A stretch of 64,000 nucleotides of DNA from Marsupella aquatica. Taxonomy: Eukaryota; Plantae; Marchantiophyta. Made by a program: the position numbers and the translations under genes. The notes beneath the pieces are model-generated. The model was not told the DNA's origin. It saw only the letters and a list, made by a program, of their open reading frames with translations, and did not search any database. Below are positions 1-18,374 of the stretch, in pieces. The DNA lies in contig OZ316892.1 of assembly GCA_973895155.1 (NCBI GenBank), forward strand, positions 29,704,932 to 29,768,931, in the 5' to 3' direction. Numbering within the stretch: position 1 is the first letter of the stretch; every line of letters begins with the position of its first letter.

Positions 1-188
1 CTATCGAGAATCAGTTCGAGAAAACTCAAATAAGCGTTAATTATATCATCGGTGAGCAACTCGCGCGGTCTCAGACACATCATATATTTCCTCTTGATCG
101 AGTGTTGTAAGAACTTGGTCAATAGCTCTTCCATATCCTTAGAAGGATCAAGGCATTGATCTATTCGACTAGCCAAATTTTCAAAAAA
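1..188 (-). pseudogene. Ulp1/peptidase C48-like exon (N-terminal part of catalytic domain)
   Basis: Manual translation FFENLASRIDQCLDPSKDMEELLTKFLQHSIKRKYMMCLRPRELLTDDIINAYLSFLELILD resembles the Ulp1 'L.P..WLND.IIN.Y..LL' motif. The catalytic triad would lie beyond the window start. Confidence 0.7.
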
Positions 189-1179
189 CTGCAAAAAATA
201 GAGATTTCAGTACGCCTTCAAATAACGTACTGAGGTTGTAGCCTAAGGGTTCTACCTCAGAAAACAGAAACAATAACAAATCAATAATAAAATAATGACG
301 TCTATAATAGAAACTTTAAGCTTATAGCTTGCAAATGACCTTTGGATTGGGTGGATCCGGCCTTTTCGTAGCTGATCTCTTGGGTGCCTCAATCGCAACA
401 ACATCCTTCAGCCCTCCTCGAGACCGCAGTGATCGCTCCACCGGACCAGTTTGCGAAGGTTAGAGCGATGAGGCAGGAAGACCTTCAAATGGTTGTGGCA
501 TTTGATTCAAATATTCCACAATCTGGGAATCCAATTCCAAAATATCCGGTGCCACAATTTCTGCGCGAGTGACCTCTGTAATATATCGGGGTCGAGACCA
601 CGAACCCGATCGCGTCAAGTCAGCTGTTAGTCTCTTAACGACTTGAGCCGAGTCTGGTGCCAAAGACGTTCTCAGGTCTTGCACTCGATTCTCGAAAAAG
701 CGAACATTATTGATGATTGTCTCCATTTTGGATGCAGTGGCAGTCTTCTCCTCGGTAATCAAAAGACCCTTCCAATATTGCAAAGTAAGAACTGTCTGGA
801 CTCGGAGCTGCTCTGGTGAATATTTATTCCAATCATCCAACGAGACCGTACTTAAGGGTGGATGGTTAAATTCAAACTCCGTGCGAAGAAAATAGTCTAA
901 TATTTTCTTCTTAACTGCAATTGAGGGTGAAGAAGGCTTCTTCAAATTCAGCCTTATTTTCGGTAGACGTTGTGCCTCAGGAATAAGCAAAAGATCCTTG
1001 GCCCTCTCGGCCTCCTTCCTCGCTGCCTCCAGTCTTGCGGAATTGACCTTTTTTGCCTCCAACTTCTTCGCCTCCACCCTCTCCGGTCTTGCGGTCTCGT
1101 CCGCCATCCTCTCGGCCAGCAGCCTCTCAGCCGCCACACTCTCCGCCTTGGCCCTATTTGCCTCTGTCACTAAAAGGAC

Positions 1180-1740
1180 TCTCGCAGCCTCCGCTTTCTC
1201 AGCCTGGGCTTTCTCAGCCTGGGCGTTCTTAGCCTCCGCTTTCTCAGCCTGGGCTTTCTCAGCCTGGGCTTTCTCAGCCTCCGCTTTCTCGGCCTCCGCT
1301 TTCTCCGCCTGGGCTTTCTCCGCAACCGCTTTCTCAGCCTGGGCTTTCTCAGCCTCCGCTTTCTCAGCCTGGGCTTTCTCAACCTCCGCTTTCTCCGCCT
1401 CCGCTTTCTCAGCCTCTGCTTTCTCAGCCTCGGCTTTCTTCTTCTTCTTCGCGGCAGTTGCTTTTCTAGCTACTGCCTTTTTCTTCTTAGCCTCCTTCTT
1501 TTGAAGCTCCTCTTGTCGGGATGCCTCCTCCTGCCGGGCCGCCTCCTTCTTTTGAAGCTTCTCTTGCCGGGCCGCCTCCTGCCGGGCCGCCTCCTCTCTG
1601 GCCTCCTCCTGCCGGGCCGCCTCCTTCTTTTGAAGCTCCTCTTGCCGGGCCGCCTCCTGCCGGGCCTCCTCCAGTCGGGCCTCCTCCTGCCGGGCCACCT
1701 CCTCTCTGGCCTCCTCCTGCCGGGCCGCCTCCTCTCGGTC
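1180..1740 (-). repeat. Coding tandem repeats: 15-bp unit (AEKAE/AEKAQ) array and EEAARQ-type array forming a charged helical linker
   Basis: Repeated gctttctcagcctcc/gctttctcagcctgg and gcctcctgccgggcc units inside ORF 460..1914. Confidence 0.9.
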
Positions 1741-2429
1741 CACCTCATGTTGAGGCTCCTGTGTGGCCTCTTCATCAGAGTCCTCAGCGTCCTCAGAACC
1801 CTCCATCTCCTCGTCCTCTTCATCAGCGTCCTCAGCGTCCTTCATCTCCTCTCCGTCACTCTCTTCATCTCCTCTATTGTCGGAATCTCCGACGTCGTTC
1901 TGCGTATTGGTCATCCACTCTGGATCTTGATCATTGACATCCCCATCCGCGTCACCTTCCGCGTCACCTTCCCCCTCACCATCCGCATTACCATTGCTCC
2001 CTGCATCCTCAACATTGAAGCCGCAGTCGACTTGATCTGAATAAAATCAGATCATTTGATAAGAATAACTCACGCGCATATTCGCGTGAAAAGAAATGTT
2101 ATGAATATCCACGCGCATGTTCGCGTGACGCAATAAAAAGTAAGAGGTTTCAAAAGTAACCTACTTTGGATTGGCCCACTAGGGTACTCCGTTGGTCGAA
2201 TGTACAATCGATCGGAATCTTCAGAGAGTGCATACTCTTGCAATAATTGATTACAAATATTATCAGGGATATGTTGTTCGTGGAGGACATCCAAAACATC
2301 AGCCCTGAGAGTAGTTACGGATGGACGGTACTTCATTAATTTATCTATACATTTTTCTATACTAGCCCGTACTGGGTCAATCAATGACAGCGTTGTATCA
2401 ATTGTCACCGTGGTGTGTTGCAAGAAACA

Positions 2430-3080
2430 AGACAACTCCCTATGCGTTGCCACAGGGCAATAATATTTTACATTGGATCCAGCATCCTGTAAAAAAAGCC
2501 AAAATTAGTTCACAATATTAATTGAGAATACAATAATCTAAATAATCTTAAAATCGAAACCCCAAAATATAAATCTCAAAACTTACCATTAAGCACTGGA
2601 TCAAGTTCGTTCCCTCACCGAAGCATATAGCCCATTCCCCACATTGGACGAATTGACTAACAATACTTTCAAAGAATGGAAGTATCTTTTCTGGGGAAGG
2701 TGTCGTGAACTCACCGCTCTCTTCAAAATTGGCTATCTTCTCAATCTGATATTTGGAGACCAATTGGAACTCGAGGGCTTGTGGATCGCCCATTGTGTTG
2801 AAGGCCAAGTTGTGAAAAGCGTAGGTTACAATAAGCTTCTTCTCCTTCGGCCGCTTCTGAATATAATGGCTATCGACAGCAACGTAGTGTGTGTACTTCC
2901 CTAATTCCCGTTTGATTAAGTAAGACTCAACTGGAGAGGCTACAATAATAACCACATGGTGTGGTTTTGCCCCTATCTCGCTAGTAGCACGAAATAACCC
3001 CTCATAGAATGAGCAATTTGGCGGACGCAAATTCCCATTGATGAGGGATCAAAATAAATCAAGCTTGCAAGGTTCTTGTC
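2430..3080 (-). pseudogene. Beta-class N6A/N4C DNA methyltransferase-like domain
   Basis: LASLIYFDPS then a 1-nt frameshift; restoring one base gives LIYFDPS(Y/F)NGNL, compare motif IV 'LIY.DPPYN'. Downstream EKILPFFESIVSQFVQCGEWAICFGEGTNLIQCLM|DAGSNVKYY parallels 'xKP..LL..LI......GD.VLDPF.GSGT...AA...GR..IG'. Motif order IV...X-I is the beta permutation. Motif I is degenerate. Confidence 0.55.
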
Positions 3081-3989
3081 TTCACGTATGATACAGTCTG
3101 CAAACCCAGCATTTTGTATATCCTTCAGGGATCGCAATTTCAGCCTCTCACCGACCGGCCGCACTAGTTGGTTTCCTTGACTATCAACTGATTTTTGTAT
3201 TCCTTCCACCAACTTGTAGAATATCGGGTCGATCTCCTTCAATAAATTATCATTACTAATATTTACATTTAAGCACTTCTTTAGATAACCACTCAACGCA
3301 TCTCTCAACTGCTTCCGCACCATCTTGTCGAGCTTAAAGCGATCAATCATTCCTTTGACCCGCAATTTCCGCGCTGAATCTGTTAGACTTTTCAGCTCCA
3401 TCCGGGTGGATGTATCCCCGTTGAGTTTACTCAATAATAAAATCTCAAACTCAACTTTTGTCTTCTTCTTTATGCAGAATTGCTCCAAACTCATGCTGGT
3501 CGTTGACAACACTGGAGCCTCAGAGGACTTCCTCGTCTTCCCAAATTTCACTTTGATGCTTCAGTTTTTGAGTATAGACAATCTTCCGCTCAACATATAT
3601 TCCGCTGCCTTTCGAAGAACCGAGTCTGAGCACCCTTGACAAGAACGAAACGTCTTCTTCAGAAGATGATAAGCACATGGATTATCCGCAATTTTGACGG
3701 CGTCCCTCTGTAAAATTCCGTTGTAAATTACAAGCTCTCCTGTCCTTGATAGTTCGTAGACCTCCATCCACTTCTTGAATGTTTCGTCCTCCATTGTAAA
3801 GAGAAACGGAGCCAATTCTCCAAATTTCATCATTTCGTTCTTCTCCATTTGAGCCCATGGGCAAACAAAACTTGTAGCTCTCATAAATACCTGAAAAACA
3901 ATGGAAACATGACAATTCTAAGCTTGACGCGACCGTTCGCGTGAAAAAAGTTTAAACGATAATGTGATCGAAGAGGGTTATTTATATAC

Positions 3990-4547
3990 CTCCCAATTTG
4001 GATGACGATAATGTGATCCAGGCCGCCCAAATGAGTTCCAGATATTACGACACTGTCGTACAATGGTAAGAAACTATCCTTCTTCCATTGATGTTTGATG
4101 ACAGTGGTTCAGAGCTTTCGATAATCCCATCAAATGAACATTATTGTCGTTGTTGAGCGTTGCCCAAAACATTACAACTTCTACAGTACCGCAAGCGTCT
4201 CGTACAACTTGGCTGACTTTATCGTCCTCTTTCAGCAATTTGTACGCCATTATTGTGTGCTGGCCTCCGAGTATCCAGAAATGACTGGTCATAATGTCCT
4301 CCTCCTTTGGCGATGAATCGTAGGGCACCCCATTGTAGTCGGGATCTCTGTTGGCCTCCAACTGAACCCACTTCACAGGGACTAAAAAGCAGCATCGCTT
4401 CTCGAACTTTATAGCCGAATGAGAGAGGAGTGAATTCTTTAGCCTATCTGTGTAATCCTGATTCCACTCTCGGCACTTGATGTGGTCCGGTGCAAGATGA
4501 CAATGTGATGTTTCAACCAAAAATGACTTGCTGTTTAATATATTCAC
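3990..4547 (-). pseudogene. ParB/Srx-like N-terminal domain
   Basis: CREWNQDYTDRLKNSLLSH...FWILGGQHTIMAYKLL...VEVVMFW...LSKALN resembles the ParB N-terminal pattern (R..d...v..L..Si ... iidGxHR..A ... v.v ... N). The arginine patch is degenerate (GGQHT). Confidence 0.55.
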
Positions 4548-5301
4548 AGCACTATATTCTTGAGGAAAGAATCGAACAGAGCCCCGACATTCGCTGAGGT
4601 AATTACTTTCGGAAGATTCTCCGCCGAGTATACTTCAACCTTGCTCACTGGCGGGGCCTTTCCTAAGCAAAATCCCTGGTTGAAAGGAACTCTCTGGAAC
4701 TCAAGTACGTCAATAATGTATTGACAAATCAAATCTCCCGTTGATCCCTCTGGATCGGAAGGATATCCCACACTAGTAACCTTTTCCAAGGCGTGCCTTG
4801 CACCTAGAAGATCATCGATTCTGGGCTGATTGAAGGTTACATATTGCGTTCGATCCAAATAAATGCTTATTTTGTCTTCCTGCTGGTCGTCGCTGACTAG
4901 CAGAACCAATCCCTCTGTACACTCTTTAACTTTCATGTTCTTCTCAAAGAAACACCCAAGAATTTTTTATCTCTCCAAAACTGTAGCTTTATCATTTTTG
5001 CCACCACAAGACGGATAGTCCCATTGCGAACGACTATTCCAAAATTGGATATCTCAGTCGATTCAAAGAGATGGATACTCTTTGTCTCCGTTGTTCTCTC
5101 TCTGATTGACTTTCCTCGATATGCAAGTATGGATGTCTCCACGGGAGTCATTTTTGTCTTGGTTTTCTTACGAGAAGCAGCTTTAGACAAGTCTCTTTTC
5201 CGCTTTGAGGTTCCGGTAGGATCCATTCTGAAACAGACAAATATTGAAAGTTAAACGTTTATTATAAAATACTAACACGCGCATGGTTGCGTCGTGCCAA
5301 A

Positions 5302-5835
5302 TTACATTTTAGGAATATTTATCCTGACCCAATCTTCTCGCTCTGAATCTTCATCTAACCAAAACCAAAGGTTCCTAAACGTGTCAAGTTCAGATCCTTC
5401 AAATCCACCCACAATGTCCAGCGGCGGGAGAGTTCTGATGGATTCTGTAAATCTTAATGCTACACTCCGTGAAGTCAAATGCCTTCGAAGCGATTCATAT
5501 CCTGGTCTATCAGTGAAGTCGTAAGCAACCAAGGTGACCGTCGCCCAAGTACTACTATAAGTAACTATGTGGCACCACTTCTTACTGACTGTTTGAATGG
5601 CGATCAAGTCCATGACCCAATTTTTAATCGTAGTATCCGACAAATTCCCAAGACAGTGGAAAAACTCTTTGACTAATGGCCAAATATATTTCTCGACAAT
5701 ATCGTCCAGAAGACCGGGTATTAGGTCTTTAGCTTGACTCCATATCATGTTTCGGTTGATAACCTTTGCACGTGCAATGCGCTCCATCATCATTTGACGA
5801 TGAGATTTTTGATTCATGTCAAAGGACTGCAGCAT
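5302..5835 (-). CDS. F-box-like protein 1 (split F-box), TE cargo
   Basis: LIPGLLDDIVEKYIWPLV ... IQTVSKKWCHIV; intronless and open; likely start is ATG 5817 after a putative acceptor. Confidence 0.65.
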   Translation of the reverse strand: MLQSFDMNQKSHRQMMMERIARAKVINRNMIWSQAKDLIPGLLDDIVEKYIWPLVKEFFHCLGNLSDTTIKNWVMDLIAIQTVSKKWCHIVTYSSTWATVTLVAYDFTDRPGYESLRRHLTSRSVALRFTESIRTLPPLDIVGGFEGSELDTFRNLWFWLDEDSEREDWVRINIPKM

Positions 5836-5869
5836 AATATGGAAACGATTAAGAACAAGAACCTATCCA

Positions 5870-6439
5870 TTAAGAACTGGGACCACCAAGATTCTGAGAA
5901 AATCTACCAAACCTTTCAATTAGGACATCTCGTTCTTCCTCATCTAAATTGTTATATTTGTTCGTAAACAATGCAATTTTGTCAGAAGTAGTAGTCCCAA
6001 GAACATATATTTTTGGAAGCATAGAAATATCCTGTCGAATAACTCGACAGACTGAGTCAAACTCCAACTCGTCAATTTTGGGTATGTCGTAAAGAGCATC
6101 ATTTGCGACATTGATAATCCGGTTTGCTTGTTTGAGGATAGCCCATAATCTTGTATTTGTAACTAAAAAGTTCCACTTCTTGCTATAAGCTCCAAGCCGA
6201 ATAAGGTCTCGGACCCTATTGATAACCAAATTGTTATCGAGGTGTCGATATCCACGCAATCTTTCAATTAAAATAAAGTGTTCGTAGAGTATTGGCCAAA
6301 TGTTTGAAATGACCAAAATATCTGGTATTCCTCCAATGAGACTAGAGGAGGATTTATCCAGTGTATCTCATATTGTTTTTTGTTTCCTTTCATGAGATGA
6401 AAGTCCGAAATCTCGACCCTCATTCAAAAGTTGGCTCAT
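5870..6439 (-). pseudogene. F-box-like protein 2, TE cargo, one premature TGA
   Basis: ATG 6439 is in frame with ORF 5870..6316, with TGA at 6368-6370; LIGGIPDILVISNIWPIL ... LGAYSKKWNFLV. Confidence 0.6.
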
Positions 6440-6504
6440 CCTGCTTTTATCATATCACAAAACATTGTTAGAAGACATACGACGTGCTTGGTCACGTAAG
6501 TTAA

Positions 6505-7056
6505 CTAGAATTCCTTAAAAGCGTAGATGTCACCCTCAAGGTATCCAACTTCGTGGCATCTGACTGTAAATTTCCATTTTTCAAGAGGGTGAAGAGCATC
6601 GTAAGTCTTCGTGAAGAGTTCCCTAAGATCTCTGGACATTGACCCCATGAATTTAATTCTTGTGTATCTCTGGAAGAAATTTTGAACTGTCGATGAGAGA
6701 GACTCATTTCTGATCGGTTTAGTAGGATTTCGTGGGAAAGCCAAATCTAATAAACTCAACTTGATTACACCCAGAAGATAGGTATTCCCAACAAGGTGGC
6801 GCCATCTGCGACACACCGAAGATAGTCCTACAAACTCATCCAATTCCTTTATTGAGAAATTTCCTGCATTAGCCGAGGAATTAAAAGTCTCCTTGATCCG
6901 AGGCCATATCAATTCCGCGACAATGAAATCTGGAAGTCCAGGTAGTAGTGTTTCAACAAATACAGAATATCCCGCCAGTAGACCATCTTGGCTTCTATCC
7001 AAAACGTCAAATATTGGGCATAGATATCTGAAGCTCTCCAGACCAGGTTTGCCCAT
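6505..7056 (-). CDS. F-box-like protein 3 (split F-box), TE cargo
   Basis: LLPGLPDFIVAELIWPRI ... LSSVCRRWRHLV; intronless open 183-aa ORF. Confidence 0.7.
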   Translation of the reverse strand: MGKPGLESFRYLCPIFDVLDRSQDGLLAGYSVFVETLLPGLPDFIVAELIWPRIKETFNSSANAGNFSIKELDEFVGLSSVCRRWRHLVGNTYLLGVIKLSLLDLAFPRNPTKPIRNESLSSTVQNFFQRYTRIKFMGSMSRDLRELFTKTYDALHPLEKWKFTVRCHEVGYLEGDIYAFKEF

Positions 7057-7194
7057 GACTCTTTTCAGCCAAATGATATATCCCAGAGATTATTTTCACG
7101 CGACTGGTCGCGTCTACAAATCAGAATGTATAAACAATTCTTTGAGAGACTGATTTTTTTGGGTCACAACGTGACAAATCATAAATGTTGCTTC

Positions 7195-7835
7195 GTCCTC
7201 TAACAGAACTAGTCAATGAGAGAGCTACCTCAAACGCGACTGGTCGCGTCAACTGATCCTAAAAGGAACCTTACCTCCTCTAACAGAACCAATCAATGAG
7301 AGCTACCTCAGACGCGACTGGTCGCGTCAACTACTCCTAAATGAAACCTTACCTCCTCTAACAGAACCAGTCAATGAGAGATCTACCTCAGACGCGACTA
7401 GTCGCGTCAACTGGTCCTAAAAGGAACCTTACCTCCTCTAACAGAACCAGTCAATGAGAGAGCTACCTCAGACGCGATTGGTCACGTCAACTGAACCTAA
7501 ACAACTATATCCACTGAACCTTCCCTGTGGAGATTTGGATATGGTACGCGCTCAGTAAATCTATCATGTTTCCTTCTGACACGCGACCGGTCGCGTCAAC
7601 TGGTCCTAAAAGGAACCTTACCTCCTCTAACAGAACCAGTCAATGAGAGAGCTACCTGACGCGACTGGTCGCGTCAACTGAACCTAAACAACTATATCCA
7701 CTGAACCTTCCTTGTGGAGATTTGGATATGGTATGCGCTTAGTAAATCTATCCAGTTTCCTTCTCACACGCGACTGGTCGCGTCAACTAGTCCTAAAAGG
7801 AACCTCACAATATTTTCACGCGACTGGTCGCGGCA
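7195..7835. repeat. Tandem array of ~79-bp units (plus two longer variant units), each with the GACGCGACTGGTCGCGTC palindrome
   Basis: Unit cctcctctaacagaaccagtcaatgagagagctacctcagacgcgactggtcgcgtcaactggtcctaaaaggaacctta; palindromes at 7233, 7311, 7391, 7471, 7580, 7658, 7767, 7817. Confidence 0.92.
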
Positions 7836-8917
7836 ACAGCTCAAACAAATTTTGGACAATAGGATAATACAATGATACAACTGTGATTACTGACCCGTAC
7901 GGACAAGGAAATCCGAGTAAGCATGATTTCATTCATTTGTATTCATTCATGAACTTTACAATAATTCAGATGTTTGAGCTCTGTCATTGTGAAACTATTA
8001 TATATCATAAGTTTAGAGAATGATCCAGCTAAGATGATTCAATTTAGCAGTCTACTGGTTGTATTCGTCAATTAAAGGATTCAGTGTAATGAGATTCACA
8101 TAACATGAGAGTTTATATGATTAAATTCACAGCGTGCAAGTTTGTAATGACTTACTTAAGACGATTCAGGTTGTATTTTAATTAGTGAGTTTGTATGATT
8201 AACACATATTTGAGTTTCCAAACAAACCGCATTATGAAAACTCAGCTTAACAATCAAGAGAAATTTTAGCAAACCACAATCAACACCAGCAGAAAATGTA
8301 GAAATTGCACCTGAATTCTAAAAAATTGATGTAATCGTCTGAGAGATTGACGTCCAAGCACTTGAAGACCTTGCTGCGGCATTCCAGAAAGTAAATATAA
8401 GATTGAAGATATTAATATGCTAAGCAACAACAACACAGCTTCTATACTTCTATACATAGAGCTTCGCTGCCACCAATTGAATAACATGTGCTTAATGCTA
8501 AGGAACTCATTATGTCGAGTTAAAAAGACTCTTTCAGAAGTACAATCAAAGCTGTGGATAGGCAAACTGAGCATGAATAAAAGCGCACTAAACTTGAAGA
8601 TTCAAAGAGGTGAAACAAACCTGAATGCTGAATGGAAGGAGCTGAAACAAGCTGCCAAAAAGTAGTTCGAGCTGCTGAAACACGTTGATCGAGCTGATAT
8701 GAGCTTAAAATTGGCTGACACGAGCTAATACAAGCACTCCCAAAAAACTAGCTGCAATGAACTAGCAAACTAGAAGTGAATACGAGCTGTAAATGCGAGC
8801 TGTAACGCACCAACGAGCTCCTGGTCGAAATGATCAACAACTACTAAGAGTTGCAATGCGCCGACAAGCACCTGACCACAACGAACGAGCTGCAACGACA
8901 AAAATGAAATCCAAGGC

Positions 8918-9130
8918 AGGAGCGAGAGCGAGAGCGAGAACGACGAGAGCGAGAGCGACGAGAGCGAGAGCGATGAGAGTGAGAGCGAGAGTGATGAGAG
9001 CGAGAGCGACGAGAGCAGGCGTGCGAAAGTCTAGGGAGCGAGAAACAACAACAATGAACAGTGAACTCGAGACCGTGGGCGCCGACACTAAGGAAGGACT
9101 AATTAGGGTATTGTTTTAGCATAACCCTAA
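8918..9130 (-). promoter_or_regulatory. Putative promoter/5' leader for the minus-strand cargo unit: (GAGAGC)n tract (CT-rich on minus strand) and telo-box-like motifs
   Basis: (gagagc/gacgagagc)n at 8920-9016; ttagggt at ~9103 and aaccctaa at ~9123. CT-rich 5' UTRs and telo-boxes are typical of plant promoters; function is inferred. Confidence 0.35.
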
Positions 9131-10439
9131 TAACAGCCTAGCGACAGAAAGGTTCCAGATGATCTCCGTACACTCCACCATCGACTGAACAAACTATGCA
9201 ATCGTGAAAAAAAGATTACCGGATTCCTTTTGATTTGCCGTACTAAAGGAGATTTCTATTTGATCGCCAATTTGCAATTTAAACTGGTAATTATGCAACT
9301 GCAAAAGATTGTTAGTGGGGACCCCCGGATCCGGATCCGTATCTTCACTATATCTGCCAATTCAAATCCAAAATGTAAACGAACGACAACTTTCTCACGA
9401 TCGTTCCATCACGTAGTGGAGGCGAACTTCAAAATCATTACATTTTGGTAGTGGAGACCGTCGGATCCGGATCCGTACTCCACTCTCTATCTTGCCAATT
9501 CAAACCCATACTCTAAACAACATAGAACGATTCTCACGGTCGGGGAGAACCGATATTCAAAATCAATCCTGTACAATGATTCTCACGACTGGAGACTCAA
9601 CCAATTTTCAAAATCAAAATCGAGTCCAGATGAACACATCCTCCATGGAGTCAATAGACTAATCTCATTGCTCACGGATCATTCTTCATTTTCAGTTTCT
9701 CCTGACCAGGATACTAGCTGGGCTCTCAGCGGAGGCTGATCCAAGGCACATTTGAGGTAGAGCAAATTGGATCATTCGACTATTCCAGTCGGAGGCGGAG
9801 CTCATTCAAGCAACGCTGGCGCAGTTCTTGTTGTATCACCTTCAATCTTGGGGAGAGCACATCCGATCAAGCGGGAGAGTTGCAACAAAGCGAGACGATA
9901 AACATTTAGAACCTCCATAGTCTGCCTCGTTCATCAAAGCATTCTAGTGGACCAAAAAAGAGCGGCTATTTTGAAATCACAGTCTGGTCGAGGATTTTGA
10001 TCTTGATACGATCAACAAGTTGTCATTCTCTGGTGGTGGGATTCGATCACGATACTCAAGGAAATTGGAGTTCAAAGAAGGAGGCTTAGTTGGCTGGGAC
10101 GAGGAGGCTACGCTGGAAGGAAGAGGCTTGGCTGAGAGGAGGGTTTCCGCCAACATCGGAGGGTTGCCGCCAACATTGCTGAGACCACACGCAACTGAAT
10201 AACTTGTAAGTATCAATCAGCATTAATTCCGCAATAAATGAGGAGAGTAGTTGCCTTAAATCACGCATTCAATGCATGAATTGAGTCAATGAAGTTATGG
10301 TCCAATTTCTCACTCTGATTTTGATCAATCCATGTTTCAAGTCCAATACAGAAGCAATGTATCAGAAGTACTAGTAGAGGATCCGAATGAATTCTCTAGT
10401 CTAAAATTGTATGGCGTTCAAGTATAGTTATCCGTACGT

Positions 10440-11660
10440 TTTGCTATTGTTTATTGTAGTCGACGGCCTAGCAAAACAAAATATAATCGAGGTCCATTTT
10501 TCAGATCAAACTGATCTCAACTTGTTAGTAGGATGACCTGATTTTTTGGATACACATGTAGTTCATCACGCGCACAGTCGCGTGAACCAATTTATCTCGT
10601 GTCTTTTGATATTGTTTATTGTAGTCAACAGCCTAGCAAATTCTCCAGCAATCTATTTTAAAACCAACGTCTTTGTTTCATCACGCGCACGGTCGCGTTA
10701 ATATTTTAGAGGTCAGCGAAAGCTTTGCACTCTTACACGTAATCGCCCTTTATTTCTCAGATCCTCCTGATCTCAACTTGTTAGTAGGATGACCTGTTTT
10801 TTGGTTACACATGTAGTTTGTCACGCGCACAGTCGCGTGAACCAATTTATCTCGTATCTTTTGATATTGTTTATTGTAGTCGACAGCCTAGCGAATTGGC
10901 CAGCAATCTATTTTAAAACCAACGTCTTTGTTTCATCACGCGCACGGTCGCGTTAATGTTTTAGAGGTCAGCGAAAGCTTTGCACTTTTAGACGTAATCG
11001 CCCTTTATTTCTCAGATCTTCCTGATCTCAACTTGTTAGTAGGATGACCTGTTTTTTGGTTACACATGTAGTTTATCACGCGCACAGTCGCGTGAACCAA
11101 TTTATCTCGTGTCTTTTGATATTGTTTATTGTAGTTGACAGCCTATCGAATTGGCCAGCAATCTATTTTGAAACCGAGTTCTGTGTTTCATCACGCGACC
11201 GGTCGCATTAATGTTTTAGAGGTTAGCGAAAGCTCTGCACTCTTAGACGTAATCGCCCTTTATTTCTCAGATCTTCCTGATCTCAACTTGTTAGTAGGAT
11301 GACCTGTTTTTTTGGTTACACATGTAGTTCATCACGCGCACAGTCGCATGAACCAATTTATCTTGATATTGTTTATTGTAGTCGACTGCCTAGCGAATTG
11401 GCCAGAAATATATTTTAAAACCGAGGTCTTCGTTTCATCACGCGCCCGGTCGCGTTAATATTTTAGAGGTCAGCGAAAGCTCTGCACTCTTAGACGTAAT
11501 CGCCCTTTATTTCTCAGATCTGTCTGATCTCAACTTGTTAGTAGGATGATCTATTTTTGGTTACACATGTAGTTCATCACGCGCACAGTCGTGTGAACCA
11601 ATTTATCTCAAGTCTTTTTGATATTGTTTATTGTAGTCGACAGCCTAGCGAATTGTCAGT
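10440..11660. repeat. Tandem array of ~255-bp units (~4.8 copies), two CACGCG-N6-CGCGT palindromes per unit
   Basis: gatctcaacttgttagtaggatgac recurs at ~10513, 10769, 11024, 11279 and 11527. Confidence 0.93.
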
Positions 11661-11901
11661 GAGAGGAATCTCAATTTTTCCTTGATTGCAAAAATGGTTA
11701 CATCGATCCCGAAGGACTTCGAATGTGGAATCCATATCCACTAGCACTATCCAGGAATTTAACTGACCTGGTCTTTCGAACACTATTTTCCACGGGACGA
11801 AATTAAGCTACACACTATCTATAACAAGTTCTAACTTGAACTACTCTTGAATCTGTAGTTCTAATCTTTGACTACTCAAAATATTATTGACTTTGATCGA
11901 G

Positions 11902-12444
11902 TCAGTCATTCCAAGATGAAGGCATCCACTCATCGGTGTCTGGTGTGGATTCCCTTGAATCCAGAAATTCTTCCTTTGCCCAAGTCCTAACGTCCATAGA
12001 TTTTCTCGGCTTGCTCTTTCTGTAATACAAATCAGAATCTTCGTTCATCTCTAATTGCCTTTTCTTCGGTGCGTCCACTTTCTTGGCCTCCTTCTTGACT
12101 GTCTTAGCATCTGTTGCTGCTTCCCCCGAAATGGATTGGACGCATGCTCTGGCCTTCAACTTCTCCCCCCTCAAAACGGATTCCATGAGGGCTTTGCCCT
12201 TTAACTTCTCCCTTGATGCCATCTTTGTAGTCATCTCTGTCGGATTGGTCTCCATCTAATCTTCCATCGACAAATGTGGCGAACAATATCGTCTCTCACA
12301 AAACATTTGACCCAATTTAGTCACCGTAAACATTATATTACATCGCTGACACATTCTGTAAGGATTACCATGAATTCGATACGTCGAACCTTCTGAATCG
12401 TCCGTCGGACCATCCTCATTCTTTGAGCTCAGCGGAGTAGTCAT
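11902..12444 (-). pseudogene. Small cargo gene with Cys-rich (CxxC...Cx4C) putative Zn finger and basic/acidic tail; one in-frame TAG
   Basis: ORFs 12256..12444 and 11902..12255 abut in the same frame (TAG ATG); YRMCQRCNIMF...FCERRYC. Confidence 0.45.
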
Positions 12445-12921
12445 CGCCCTTCAAACAAGAGATGCGGACCGAGACTAAGAATTGGAAATGAGAGAGCTGA
12501 TGTGCGAATAGATTATCCAATAGCCAAAAAGTGGAATGCGTGGGGGAATGAGCAATAGGGATCATCTCAATGCTTTATACTGTTTAGTCTCCACTAGTCA
12601 TTGTCCATAGTGGTTTCTAGAAGAGAGTGCGCATTTGACTGGCGCGTATTAGAATTGGCGGGAAGTTCAGTTGTCCTCTAATTATGGCTTTAATTTCACG
12701 TTTGGCGACCGCCCCGGGAATACTGATTGCTAGTGAACTACTGAGATTTCTTATGAGGGTCAGTAGTTACTGACTGTCCGGTGTCCACTCATTGGTAAAC
12801 TGGTACTGTCCACTCATTTTTTCTGAGTGGAGTTGAAATGATTGTTCGTAATTGATTGTAGTCGTTCTCATTCACTTGAAATGACTGACAGACCATGCAT
12901 AATCTGTTACCGGTATGTGTG

Positions 12922-13230
12922 ATGCCTTTAGATCCGTAATTGTATCTTCCTATCTTGCGCGCAATCGTATCTTACTTATGAAGTACCAAGTATGAGCTAG
13001 AGTTTGGGCCTAGCCTTCTAGCTTCTACATCGTAGACCCTGTTATCCCTACACCCTCTGACTAAGGTCACGCGACATGCCTTTAGATCCGTAATTGTATC
13101 TTCCTGTCTCACGCGCAATCGTATCTTACTTATGAAGTACCAAGTACGAGCTAGAGTTTGGGCCTAGCCTTCTAGCTTCTACGTTGTAGACCCTGTTATC
13201 CCTACACCCTCTGACTAAGGTCACGCGACT
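12922..13230. repeat. 154-bp direct tandem duplication upstream of the transposase, flanked by a second dispersed duplicate (~12765-12920 vs ~13345-13470)
   Basis: atgcctttagatccgtaattgtatcttcc at 12922 and 13076. Confidence 0.88.
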
Positions 13231-13625
13231 AGTCGCATGCAGGGCAGTGCATTGACTATATTCTGCCTACTTATTGACGGTCGTGACAGGACAATGCAGT
13301 TCACGGACATTTTACTGGCGCTTATTAGCACTACTGTCCTCAGCAGTTACTGACTGTCCACTCATTTGTTCTGAGTGGATGTGAAATGATTGATCGTAAT
13401 CGATTGTGGTCATTCTCATTCATTTGAAATGACTGACGGACCATGCATAGTCTGTTGCCGGTATGTGGTACCTCTAGGGTCACGCGACCAGTCGCGTGCA
13501 ACGCAATGCATTGACTACATTCTGCTTATTGACCGACGTGACAGGACAGTGCAATGAAATTGACGGACGTGACAGGACTGTACGCTTACAGTGATATTCT
13601 CTGATGTGCAGGATCATAATTATTA

Positions 13626-16600
13626 TGGTGACATCGATAGTATGGATCAGGGAAGGTGGACAAGTTATTATAGGCATACGTGAGAAACAGGTTGGAAAAG
13701 GTCGCGTGATAAGTCTTGATCCTTCCAGGGTTTGTCACAATGTTCCTCTTGGGGCGGACAGAGTTCTTCTTCTATTGGAGGAAGTTTTTGACGAGACCAT
13801 TCTATGCGAAGATGGCAAACTTTTGAAGGACATGATTGGGGGTTACCTTGTATGGGAAAGGAATCAGCTTTTTTGAGCTCCCATAGAATCGGAGGATGTG
13901 TTTGGCACTGTTGGTGATGATCAAGATCCAGTCAATCAAAATTCTGATGGGAACAACCATAATGAGAGTCGGTCTGGTGTGGAAGTAGTTTTACCAAAGG
14001 CCTTGTGGATGGGCATGCCTGTAAAGGTGGTGGATGAGAACAAGTTGATTTTTGCAGTGGCAACTATACATGTTCTAGATCCTATAGTGAAGCTTGGGGA
14101 TATATGTCACCATTGGGAATACACATGTGGGAATTCTGATCAACAATTTTGTCAAGGGAGCTACCATAGATCATCTGAAGCATAGAGATTGCTTAAAAGC
14201 TTGGTCGATGGACCAACTCATTGCCAAGGATGGCAACTTGTTGTCTTTCCACAACATCAGGCAAGCTGTGGGAGGGAACACATCTCCAACAAGTGGCAAG
14301 CGGTCTTACGTCCATAAAAGTAGGAAAGAAAGAGTCCATCTTCCCAGACATCTAGAAGAGACACATCTTTGGCACGTCAAGATGTGTTGTTGATAAACAC
14401 TAAGGACTGTTGTAGTGAACATTGTTGCCAATATTTGGACCGCAACTTGGCTATGGCAATTAGGCAAAAGTGGTGGTCAAAATCTTTTGCGGAGCGCAAG
14501 GAGGAGGAAATCAAGGCTATTAAAAATACAATACACTTGGGTACTGGAGAAAGGATTCTAGCAGTGGAAGGCAAAGTATTGTGCTTGGAGGCATGGAGAA
14601 TCATTCATTCAAGAGGAAAGACTCAATTTTATGCCTTGAAGAAGACTGTGATGGCTGGAATGAACATAGGTACCCATGGTAATGCTGGAAAAGGCGTATG
14701 TCCGAGAAAGTATCTCAAGCATTCATGTCAATGAAAGAGATTATTGAGGAGGCAGCTGATCATCATCCAGCCAAGTTGCATGAGAACCATGGCAGATAAT
14801 ACAAGGATGGTTTTGAGGGAATTGCCAACAAATCTTACTTGGGAGAATATTAGAAATAGGGTTAATATTGTCAACCAGGAGGCTGGTCTTCCTCCAATTT
14901 CCCAACCCACCTTGAGTCATCTACATCAGATGTATTTCAGGGAGTTCTCACGTCACAAAAAGGGCAACAACTTTTCAAAGTGTACAACTTGTAGTGAGTT
15001 GCTTCAACAAAAAGCAAACCTTACAGGAGCTAAGGAAGAGTTAGAGGGCCTAAGGCGTGACGAGGAGGAACATCACCAAGACCACACACAGCAAAGAATG
15101 TGCTATCATACTTGGAGATATGAGTCCATCCATCGTCCAAAGGAAGTGTTATGCCTTATTCATGATAAGATGGATCATTCAAAGACAGCTCTCCCAAGAA
15201 TGCCCTTCAATCCTAAGCATGTGGATGGTGCCCAAAAGTTCCCAATTACTGTCACTGGTATCCTTACTCATGGTCATGGTCCCAAGGCCATAGCCCAATA
15301 TCATGTTGGAGTGTGGCCAGGTGATGTCAACATCACTATTGGGTCAATTGATTCAATACTAAGGATGTTGGAAAACCCAAATCCAATGATCAAATCACTT
15401 GTGGAGGGGCCAGACTCGACAAGTCTTTTTAAAGACCTCCTTTTTGGGAGAGCAGATATCTTGGAGGCAAGTGTCCTTAGAGCATTTGAGGATGACATTG
15501 CCTACATCTCAAGCCTAGGTACTTTACTCACAATCCTTTAATTTATTATTATTTAATAATATAAGCTCACACACACTGACACTCTACTTTGTGTAGTTGT
15601 TGCTCCTCCTAGCCAAGGTTTCATTAATAGGGTTTAAACCCTAAACCCTAAATTGGGGTTTAGGGTCTGACTAGGGTTTTATTTAAAAGCATTCTGAGAT
15701 TGTTACATTGTGATGCAACACCTGAGGCACCAAAGTTCAGGCCCCTTCCACGAGTATTGAAGCTACAACTGGATAATTGTGCCTCAGACAACAAGAACAG
15801 ATATATGATGGCTTATTTGTCATTGTTGACGGCAAGGGAAGTGTTTGAAGAGGTTCATCTTGGTTTTATGGTGGTTGGGCATACTCATGAGGACGTTGAC
15901 GGTATGTTCGGGCATTTTTCAGAGTCTATGATGCATAACCCCACATACTCATTGCCTGAGTTAATGTCCTTGTTCATGAGAGCAAGGACACCCAATGCAG
16001 TCCCACATTTTCTATAGGAGGTCCCAGATTTCAAAAACTACTTAGCTCCATTCATGTTGAAGGGCCCTGAGGCATTGGTGGGGCATTTAAAACCCAGACT
16101 GTTTAGGTTCTATGTTCGTCATGATAGTATGCCATGCTTCCAATACAAAATGAAGTCAACTGATTAGGGATGGTTACCCAAGGAAGGTATTGAAATGTGG
16201 TCATGGAAAGATGACAAAAGTCCTCACATCCCAATTGGGGTGCCCAAACGGCTACCAATGATGGAGTTGAAAATGCTTCCTGAAGTGCTGACAGGGTTGA
16301 AGAAGCATGTGTCATTCTTTGAGTTTATTCTAAAGCGAACAAAAGAGGAAGAACCAAAGCGACGTTGGACAACTATCATCAATTATTGGAATGACATTGT
16401 AGATACTCTACAGGGTGAGCAGGTGCAATATGAACCTGAAGGTGCACACAACTTGGAATACGGGTTTTGGCCTTTATCAATATGGAGAGAGCACGTTCCA
16501 CCAGAATATCGAAATGTGGCATGTGAGTTGGAGGCAACAGTGGATTATGTGGGACCAGCAAAAGATAAACCTCCTGAGAGTTTTAACCCTAGGGTTGATG

Positions 16601-17015
16601 TTGTGAAGGGCTGTTATGTGTTGGTACGGCCGGACGACTCAGACCTGATGTTTATCCCGTCCATATGGGGTTAGTTGTTACAGATGTGGTAGAAGGACCA
16701 GTGAATGAACAAAACCTTCTTACTCATGTATGTGGCGTTGAGTGGTTTAGACCATTTATGGCAAAGAAGCAATGTGGTCAATCAGATTGGCAGCCAAGAG
16801 AGCGGTGGGCAGATTCTTGGGATAAGAAATGAGAACGTGATCCAACTCCAATATACAAGGAAGCTGAGACAATAGATGTTTCCTCTGCCTTGTGGTGTTT
16901 CAAAGCACGCCAAGGACCAGTGACAGGGCTGGTAGGAATTCCAAAGAATGTTGTTGTCAAGGCAAGAGACTATCTCTTGACATGCATAGCAAGTGACAAA
17001 TCCTAGACAGTAATG
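13626..17015 (+). pseudogene. DUF7869-type / Sola-like DDD transposase with N-terminal Tnp1/En-Spm-like (DUF8039-like) domains
   Basis: Core motifs LIHDKMDHSK, LQLDNCASDNKNRYMMAYLSLL and FMVVGHTHEDVDGMF; FSKCTTC...H...H Zn motif; CCSEHCC and LCLEAW; N-terminal VGKGRVISLDP..CHNVPLG...GGYLVW. Several frameshifts and in-frame stops (13874 TGA, 16015 TAG). Intron region ~15519-15717. Confidence 0.8.
15628..15680. repeat. Short telomere-like TTTAGGG/CCCTAAA cluster in both orientations inside a transposase intron
   Basis: tagggtttaaaccctaaaccctaaattggggtttagggtctgactagggtttt. Confidence 0.75.
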
Positions 17016-17097
17016 AAGCATGTAGTTTAGCATACAGTTTAAAAGGCAACTCAGAATAGTAGTAGGCAGAGAACTCAAGTTTAGACAAGTCTTATCG

Positions 17098-17556
17098 TTG
17101 GTTAGTTTATTTAAGATATAATATTAGTTAGTGGGGCCTTAGTTTGGTGATATTAAGGCATGATATTATTGACATTCAAATGAATGTCCAGTAGACATTG
17201 TAATATACAACAATCCTATTAATAAATAATAATTATAGTTACACCTTCAAGTGAACTCAACTTTCAATGATTTTCTGATTTTATATGGTTCCATGCCTGA
17301 TTGAGTCAAAGCAATAGAAACTAACTAATTAAAGGGTGATACTATGATTGTAGGTCACGCACCCTGGTGCGTGTCAATCTTTTTTTGCATTCAACCCTAT
17401 AGTAATTAAATAGACAAGTTAGTTAGTTGGTTAGTTTATTTAAGATATAATATTAGTTAGACAGTGGGGCCTTAGTTTGGTGATATTAAGGCATGATATT
17501 ATTGACATTCAAATGAATGTCCAGTAGACATTGTAATATACAACAATCCTATTAAT
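17098..17556. repeat. ~127-bp direct repeat pair downstream of the transposase
   Basis: ttggttagtttatttaagatataatattagtta...caacaatcctattaat at ~17098-17224 and ~17427-17556. Confidence 0.88.
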
Positions 17557-18072
17557 TGTTGTAAAGGGTGGTCAATCTTTTTTGTATTCAACCCTATAGT
17601 AATTAAATAGACAATTGAAACAATGAATGACAGTTTAATTAAGGATTTGTGCATGGATCAAGAGGTACTTGATGTCATTTAGTGATGCATTGTTATAAAG
17701 ATCTTGCAACAAAACATTTGAAGTTTTTGACTATCCCACCAAATGTTAAAGAGGTTGATCATTCATTAACTTATAATATTTAGATAAAATTGGAATTAAT
17801 CTAATACTTCAGTATTCCTTAAATTGGGGTTATAGGTTTCATTTTCGTTGAAGTCTCTCAATGATGCGTTTGCATCACCTCAATGTTTCTTACATTGAGA
17901 CTAAAATTTGTAATTAAGAAACTGACCTCTGGTTAAGAGACTGACCTCTGGACCAGTTTCTTACTCTTGACTCCATGGCTTTCCTCGAGAAAATCAAAGG
18001 TCAAAAGAGGAGACAACCATGATTGTGCTGGGAGCCCACCTTTAGGGGTGTATGTAACTGCACATCAAAATG

Positions 18073-18273
18073 TGACATATAGGGTGGCTGACCTCCCTCC
18101 ATCCTCCATAGCATGATAAACCCCTTTATTTTCTTTAAATCAATGAGTGCCCACCATATATTAACACATTTTGACATATAGGGTGTCTGACCTCCCTCCA
18201 TCCTCCATAGCATGATAAACCCCTTTATTTTCTTTAAATCAATGAGTGCCCACCATATATTAACACATTTTGA
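18073..18273. repeat. ~99-bp tandem duplication within a ~240-bp insertion in the RLK remnant
   Basis: tgacatatagggt...ttaacacattt occurs twice; flanks align with 38020-38045. Confidence 0.85.
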
Positions 18274-18374
18274 TGTGTGATTGACTCACGTTCATAACTA
18301 TGGAGCATGCGAGTATGGACCAATCTTCAAAGTGAAAAATTTGTTCCAAGTAAGAAGAATAGAAAATCAATATA

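Follow-up and report, generated by a model that had tools for sequence, protein, structure and literature searches.

In the giant Plavaka transposons of red algae, the gene for a ParB-like protein, PAG3, adjoins tandem arrays of inverted repeats, and self-binding has been proposed (Petroll et al., 10.1101/2025.02.11.637652). The 21.5-kb transposon Sola1-1_Ec32 of Ectocarpus carries an accessory gene whose product joins ParB to an N4C/N6A methyltransferase domain (Dinatale et al., PMC12477816), and that paper's main text has 0 occurrences of "palindrom". For the VANDAL/VANC system, element-specific short motifs have been tied to the loss of methylation, with both binding and demethylation demonstrated (PMC5735166, PMC10398659); the targets of VANC21 lie in introns, intergenic DNA and terminal non-coding DNA, and the motifs were gained via tandem repeats (PMC5735166). 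Among the bacterial ParB-like proteins, BisD of ICEclc needs the arginine of its GxxR motif for nucleotide binding (PMC12409273).

That a ParB-like gene and inverted repeats form a pair has been proposed previously for the red-algal transposons; the locus described here is a land-plant variant of this pairing, and a step in CpG content is the added evidence. Like Plavaka (17–19 kb) with its PAG3, this is a giant DNA transposon in which a ParB-like accessory gene accompanies tandem arrays of inverted repeats. Unlike Plavaka as described, it resides in a land plant, encodes a DUF7869 transposase, spreads its sites over introns and leaders across 11 kb and shows the CpG step; moreover, we identified no 2OG-oxygenase domain in it. 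As in Sola1-1_Ec32, the ParB-like gene is on the strand opposite the transposase, but a methyltransferase domain is not supported here, and the Sola1-1 termini differ (AACCG). With VANC targets, the sites share their location in intronic, intergenic and upstream non-coding DNA of the element and their amplification by tandem repeats. On the other hand, the VANC motifs are 8–9-bp non-palindromes in Mutator-type elements, whereas we find a 16–20-bp palindrome together with a predicted ParB-fold protein, and what we observe here is a step in CpG on the evolutionary scale, which is one-sided and does not decay with distance. The likeness to ParB–parS, KorB and BisD–bisS lies in the ParB-N fold (modelled here), the 16-bp palindrome and the carriage on a mobile element (PMC12409273), the site being present on the same replicon as the ParB-fold gene, as in ParB/parS systems. 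Unlike the bacterial systems, the gene is eukaryotic and contains introns, its product lacks the GxxR arginine and has extra PH-like N-terminal and long C-terminal parts, and no ParA was seen in the element. Our literature search, with most subscription papers outside its coverage, found no land-plant transposon pairing a ParB-like gene with palindromes.

The window, that is, the whole 64,000-base stretch analysed, contains 24 matches to ACGCG-N6-CGCGT (ACGCGNNNNNNCGCGT) with at most one mismatch, of which 17 are exact, compared with a mean of 0.20 and a maximum of 1 in dinucleotide shuffles (n = 100). All 24 fall within 2072–13497 and none in the 45.7 kb of host DNA in the window. An earlier, sequence-only reading had reported more than 20 copies limited to the element; both statements hold, although each site starts one base to the right of the position then noted. 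When exact arms were matched across spacers of 0–15, the spacer of 6 was the only one to yield any (17 vs 0). A weight matrix trained on 14 sites scored the 24 sites at 16.7–31.9, against 7.5 for the top site in host DNA, and added weaker sites at 600, 6482 and 17357 (total 27).

Across a set of 11 representative sites, pairing holds in 10–11 at the core positions and in only 5–7 at positions 1, 2, 8 and 9. The motif had been written as (C/G)ACGCG-N6-CGCGT(G/C); its arms and 6-bp spacer stand, but the outer C/G pairs in just 6 of the 11, so palindromy there is unreliable, and the half-site is best rendered as T-S-A-C-G-C-G-M-M. The outer letters are chosen independently in each half. Because half-site positions vary without keeping their pairs, the palindrome would suit the site of a dimeric protein better than a hairpin. 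A comparison of 30-base flanks (grouping threshold 0.62; null 99th percentile 0.56) placed the 27 sites in 13 groups and the 24 sites in 10 unrelated groups, the latter reduction arising because two tandem arrays, one of 80/187 bp and one of 255 bp, supply 16 of the 24. The dimeric-site proposal of the earlier reading thus gains support from the fixed spacer, the unrelated flanks and the independently varying half-sites. The sites at 7098 and 7818 have a short left flank in common and may be related.

The sites belong to a multicopy element. Contigs of four public runs cover the window from 1 to ~18,280 at a high, fairly even depth that then collapses; in run X1, six of the eight listed pieces have a depth of 399–729, compared with 21 for the contig spanning 18253–20000. 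Loose ends at 18282 were found in 108, 142 and 68 contigs of runs X1, X2 and X3, with a shared 10-base end followed by diverse flanks, and the present copy lacks these ~10 terminal bases of the other copies. The right end of the element is therefore placed at 18225..18282, and the left end, like the TSD, lies outside the window. Because depth is not copy number and none of the listed pieces spans the stretch, we infer, rather than observe directly, one multicopy element of >18 kb. Similarly, the even depth suggests that cargo and transposase are linked in other copies, among which no listed contig spans both.

On the minus strand, the element carries a broken cargo gene of ~4.8 kb (460..5226), with frameshifts and stops in the present copy, and upstream of it three paralogous F-box-like ORFs (5302..7089), each with a weak F-box-like match (E 0.007–0.054) that falls under the curated cut-off. 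A short minus-strand ORF of no known kind (11902..12255) is divergent from a broken, CpG-poor DDE-type transposase gene on the plus strand (13610..17005; DUF7869, E 9e-31). DUF7869 transposases are, we assume, linked to the Sola superfamily, and none of the 23 ORF pieces scanned had a Mutator-type Pfam match. The present copy is dead, and CpG is where its sites now decay: six of their seven mismatches are CpG transitions. The host DNA of the window carries receptor-kinase genes, which mark the host as a land plant.

The sites occupy non-coding DNA. We read four GT-AG introns within the cargo ORF or directly ahead of it, and all of them but 2586–2487 hold a site. Two exact sites, 2072 and 2111 (2072..2126), lie in the intron at ~2164–2037, and another exact site (3927..3942) lies in the intron 3989–3891, which is supported by the fact that the first-exon ORFs of relatives lose similarity at the same W-x-V position. 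The one-mismatch site at 5277..5292 had been called intergenic (as 5276), but it is likely intronic because a GT-AG stretch, 5305–5228, ends just before the cargo ATG; the intronic placement of the other cargo-gene sites stands as read. In other copies, the joints suggest intron-site duplications and array-length changes: 35 bp including the site at 3927 appear to be duplicated (joint 3948 to 3914), and the site at 5277 is apparently duplicated in some copies (joint 5315 to 5276). The matrix-only sites on this side are a weak variant within the cargo gene's final coding exon (600..615, score 12.9) and an eroded site between two F-box-like ORFs (6482..6497, score 4.5).

Tandem amplification of the sites occurred repeatedly. 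Nine sites lie at 7098..7833, seven of them inside the 80/187-bp array (7196–7805), and nine more in the 255-bp array (10496..11655; 4.6 units), where each unit contains two unrelated site contexts. An AC/CA swap occurs in one array unit. The sites at 13223 and 13482 (13223..13497) belong to a duplicated unit that precedes the transposase ORF and likely lie within leader introns of the transposase on the plus strand; GTATGT donors precede both, and this intron status is read from GT/AG signals alone. Lone half-sites lie at 13069, 13111 and 13703. The transposase gene itself (13610..17005), its internal intron included, has no intact site, and downstream of it is a symmetric variant, ACGCA-N6-TGCGT (17357..17372), which lacks both inner CpGs. 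This is the degenerate copy noted earlier at ~17356. The variant exists, but its reading as private decay was rejected, for no alternative letter reaches 5% in any of the four runs and the variant is fixed in the family; it holds two of the six CpGs remaining in 17005–18282.

The CpG content of the element changes abruptly at 13810 (support 13710–13980), ~300 bp past the last intact site, from 36.8 to 9.2 CpG per kb. With the sites masked, the CpG o/e is 0.82 over 1–13,700 and 0.23 over 13,811–18,282; we refer to 1..13810 as the CpG-retaining arm. At codon positions 3-1, the cargo gene has a CpG odds ratio of 0.68, compared with 0.43 in the F-box-like ORFs and 0.16 in the transposase; cargo against transposase at these positions gives an odds ratio of 3.5 (p = 0.0008), so that the step is not accounted for by amino-acid content. 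The non-coding parts of the arm retain CpG as well (0.80–0.93). On the cargo side, 12 of 13 kilobase bins have an o/e of at least 0.7. None of the 4 bins on the transposase side reaches this value, and 16 of the 45 in the host DNA do; the host DNA has CpG-rich stretches too, the longest run being 5 kb.

Inside the arm, CpG retention is flat with distance from the sites (0.74–1.13 at every distance), and a local protective halo around each site was rejected for want of such distance decay. The densest array bin (7–8 kb) has a masked o/e of 0.30. CpG survival had been seen as special to the sites, which it is not, since the whole arm retains CpG and six of the seven site mismatches are themselves CpG transitions. 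Within the arrays, CpG decay affected 4/112 positions in the palindrome arms and 7/59 elsewhere (p = 0.049), a contrast that is weak because the units depend on one another and the count of 7/59 is inflated at the alignment ends. The drop is one-sided, and CpG depletion at codon 3-1 is seen as early as the transposase N-terminus (13595–14140; odds ratio 0.2), for which reason the step may mark the place where two modules with separate histories were joined.

The cargo gene, on the minus strand, is laid out as a weak PH-like N-terminus, a ParB-N fold (~4530–4080), a helical and alpha/beta middle, acidic and charged repeats, and a C-terminal domain. Its exon piece 4634–4074 had one match among longer proteins, P0001, at 62% identity. 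A search with P0001 gave 24 clusters at 50% identity, and the cargo family is old and diverse. Of the ten relatives whose source was checked, two belong to the liverwort Calypogeia fissa, which makes a liverwort host likely; CAM6091819.1 and CAM6093214.1 are relatives from this species. A metagenome scan for relatives with flanks reduced 33 pattern matches to 1 locus, a decayed 1.2-kb fragment (CpG o/e 0.36, no ACGCG) too short for the test, and viral contigs scanned for relatives with flanking DNA gave none. A single exact 20-mer match in the viral contigs was treated as chance.

The structure model of P0001 (pLDDT 80) retrieved only ParB, Noc or PadC in its best 10 Foldseek rows, at E 0.004–0.03, none reaching 0.001. 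In VIA, KorB and PadC aligned best with residues 226–375 (Z 8.4, rmsd 2.8–2.9, 94–98 aligned; for KorB, rmsd 2.8 and 94), followed by SerK, sulfiredoxin and SbnI at Z 6.2–7.3, and the PH-like match of the N-terminus was weak (Z 5–5.7). A ParB-N fold is thus predicted for the cargo family from a 62%-identical relative, but such a fold is no proof of DNA binding because sulfiredoxin, SerK and SbnI share it. In all 10 full-core rows, the nucleotide-pocket motif is GQHT or GQHS, with Thr or Ser replacing the GxxR arginine in the register that we assigned. Consequently, the ParB-like assignment of the sequence-only reading carries over to the fold, as modelled on the relative, but not to the CTP arginine: the protein would be ParB-like in fold while lacking one defining mark of the ParB CTP clamps. 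A degenerate N4/N6 methyltransferase reading of the middle domain (3080–2400) was a resemblance by eye and is not supported. The ORF pieces had no methyltransferase match in Pfam, a 44-sequence profile gave no such domain match, and homologue searches with the middle region found none; hhalign placed it on the motif X–I region, but at least 8 of 40 shuffles outscored its 16.3, and the fold matches of its single-sequence model (pLDDT 38) were discarded.

Could the element shield itself from silencing with its own ParB-fold protein? CpG is ordinarily worn away under methylation, and its retention in the site-bearing arm hints that the element might. In this scheme, the cargo protein would load as a dimer at the palindromes and occupy or spread over the arm that they bracket, so that in active lineages host CG methylation would be kept off the cargo and promoter arm. 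The transposase body would stay methylated; this gene, which lies past the last intact site, has lost most of its CpG. The effector might act by occluding the maintenance methyltransferase, or it might be the middle domain or one of the adjacent F-box-like ORFs. We infer binding, spreading and the protective meaning of the CpG step to different degrees: the cargo protein, the predicted partner, probably binds the palindrome, but the odds that it binds as a dimer and also keeps the arm unmethylated, as VANC does, seem to us about even. The VANC-like reading offered earlier agrees with the layout of the VANC targets, and the CpG step fits anti-silencing, but the transposase is of the DUF7869 and not the Mutator type.

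More tentatively, and with somewhat less than even confidence, we propose that early land plants harbour giant transposons with a bacterial-type ParB site-and-clamp epigenetic shield, which would load at intron palindromes, spread over ~14 kb, keep the cargo and promoters unmethylated and stop at the transposase gene. If true, plants would possess, besides VANC, a second sequence-specific anti-silencing system that evolved independently, and the ParB–palindrome pairs of eukaryotic transposons would have their first methylation-type footprint. The shielding idea is directly testable because there is a defined site, a multicopy family in several public runs, relatives in a liverwort that has been sequenced and a sharp CpG boundary; should it hold, it would provide a compact protein-plus-site tool to keep transgenes unsilenced over many kilobases.

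A different account lets the cargo protein bind the palindrome for another job, either compacting or bridging the giant element for transposition or switching promoters like KorB or BisD; the CpG step would then only mark where a cargo module without methylation meets an old transposase module that is methylated. CpG retention without distance decay, a step that falls approximately at the start of the transposase ORF and the presence of sites on both sides of the transposase all speak for it, as does the ParB-like clamp BisD of ICEclc, which activates distant genes (PMC12409273). However, the old, diverse cargo family and the CpG-retaining non-coding arm fit a recent capture poorly, and we regard this account, the main alternative, as doubtful, though well worth keeping in view. 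The palindrome might instead recruit a host factor, for instance a transcription factor that reads CG, whether of the CGCG-box type or another; this factor would hold the arm open, and the ParB-fold protein would be unrelated. The half-sites do contain CGCG, the clusters of sites fall in introns and leaders, which are places of host enhancer action, and binding by the cargo protein is itself a prediction. Yet the 45.7 kb of host DNA has 0 full sites, and its half-site density is 0.22 per kb compared with 3.55 per kb in the CpG-retaining arm. Plant CGCG-box factors, moreover, are not known to fit a spacer held strictly at 6 bp, which leaves a host factor unlikely.

CACTA elements carry subterminal motifs bound by their transposase, and the sites here could be internal repeats of that kind. 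Transposase binding, also raised in the sequence-only reading, would agree with the confinement of the sites to the element and with the one variant ~900 bp inside the right end, the sole end in the window; nevertheless, all 24 intact or near-intact sites lie internally, 4.8–16 kb from that end, and track introns and arrays, so that this proposal is weak and quite improbable. Finally, it is very improbable that the palindromes work as hairpins in intron RNA or that they arose neutrally through tandem duplication and template switching. Intronic placement and the origin of 16 of the 24 sites as array copies would be in keeping with this, and both the symmetric change at 17357 and the AC/CA swap could stem from template switching, but identical letters recur in 10 unrelated flank groups, and the variable positions often break the pairing.

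The cargo gene, the broken ParB-like gene of the transposon, is predicted to encode a PH-like fold (Z ~5) N-terminal to its ParB domain, as modelled on residues 30–175 of the relative P0001 (window 5226–4600, minus strand); the passages of the papers describing algal ParB-like transposon genes do not mention such a fold. Furthermore, its C-terminal part contains 15-bp coding repeats (1100–1750, minus strand); tandem peptide repeats are also described in the variable regions of VANC, the anti-silencing protein of VANDAL elements (PMC5735166).

Could the neighboring F-box-like ORFs, three paralogues at 5302–7089 on the minus strand, be connected to this gene? Splicing out the intron that bears the site could join the last of them to the cargo gene in the same reading frame, and the predicted products of the three might target host proteins for degradation. 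The GA-rich repeats at 8920–9130, together with a telo-box-like sequence, may serve as promoter or leader for the cassette on the minus strand.

In the tandem array, the inner half-site letters switch between units from CA to AC or CC (11193–11208 and 11440–11455), possibly as a result of template switching within the quasi-palindrome. The window copy carries a ~320-bp rearrangement compared with most copies of the element (17099–17600), and its right end lacks ~10 terminal bases. Beyond it, a host segment bearing broken receptor-kinase genes is repeated in three or four copies at spacings of ~19 kb and ~11 kb (21200–58100).
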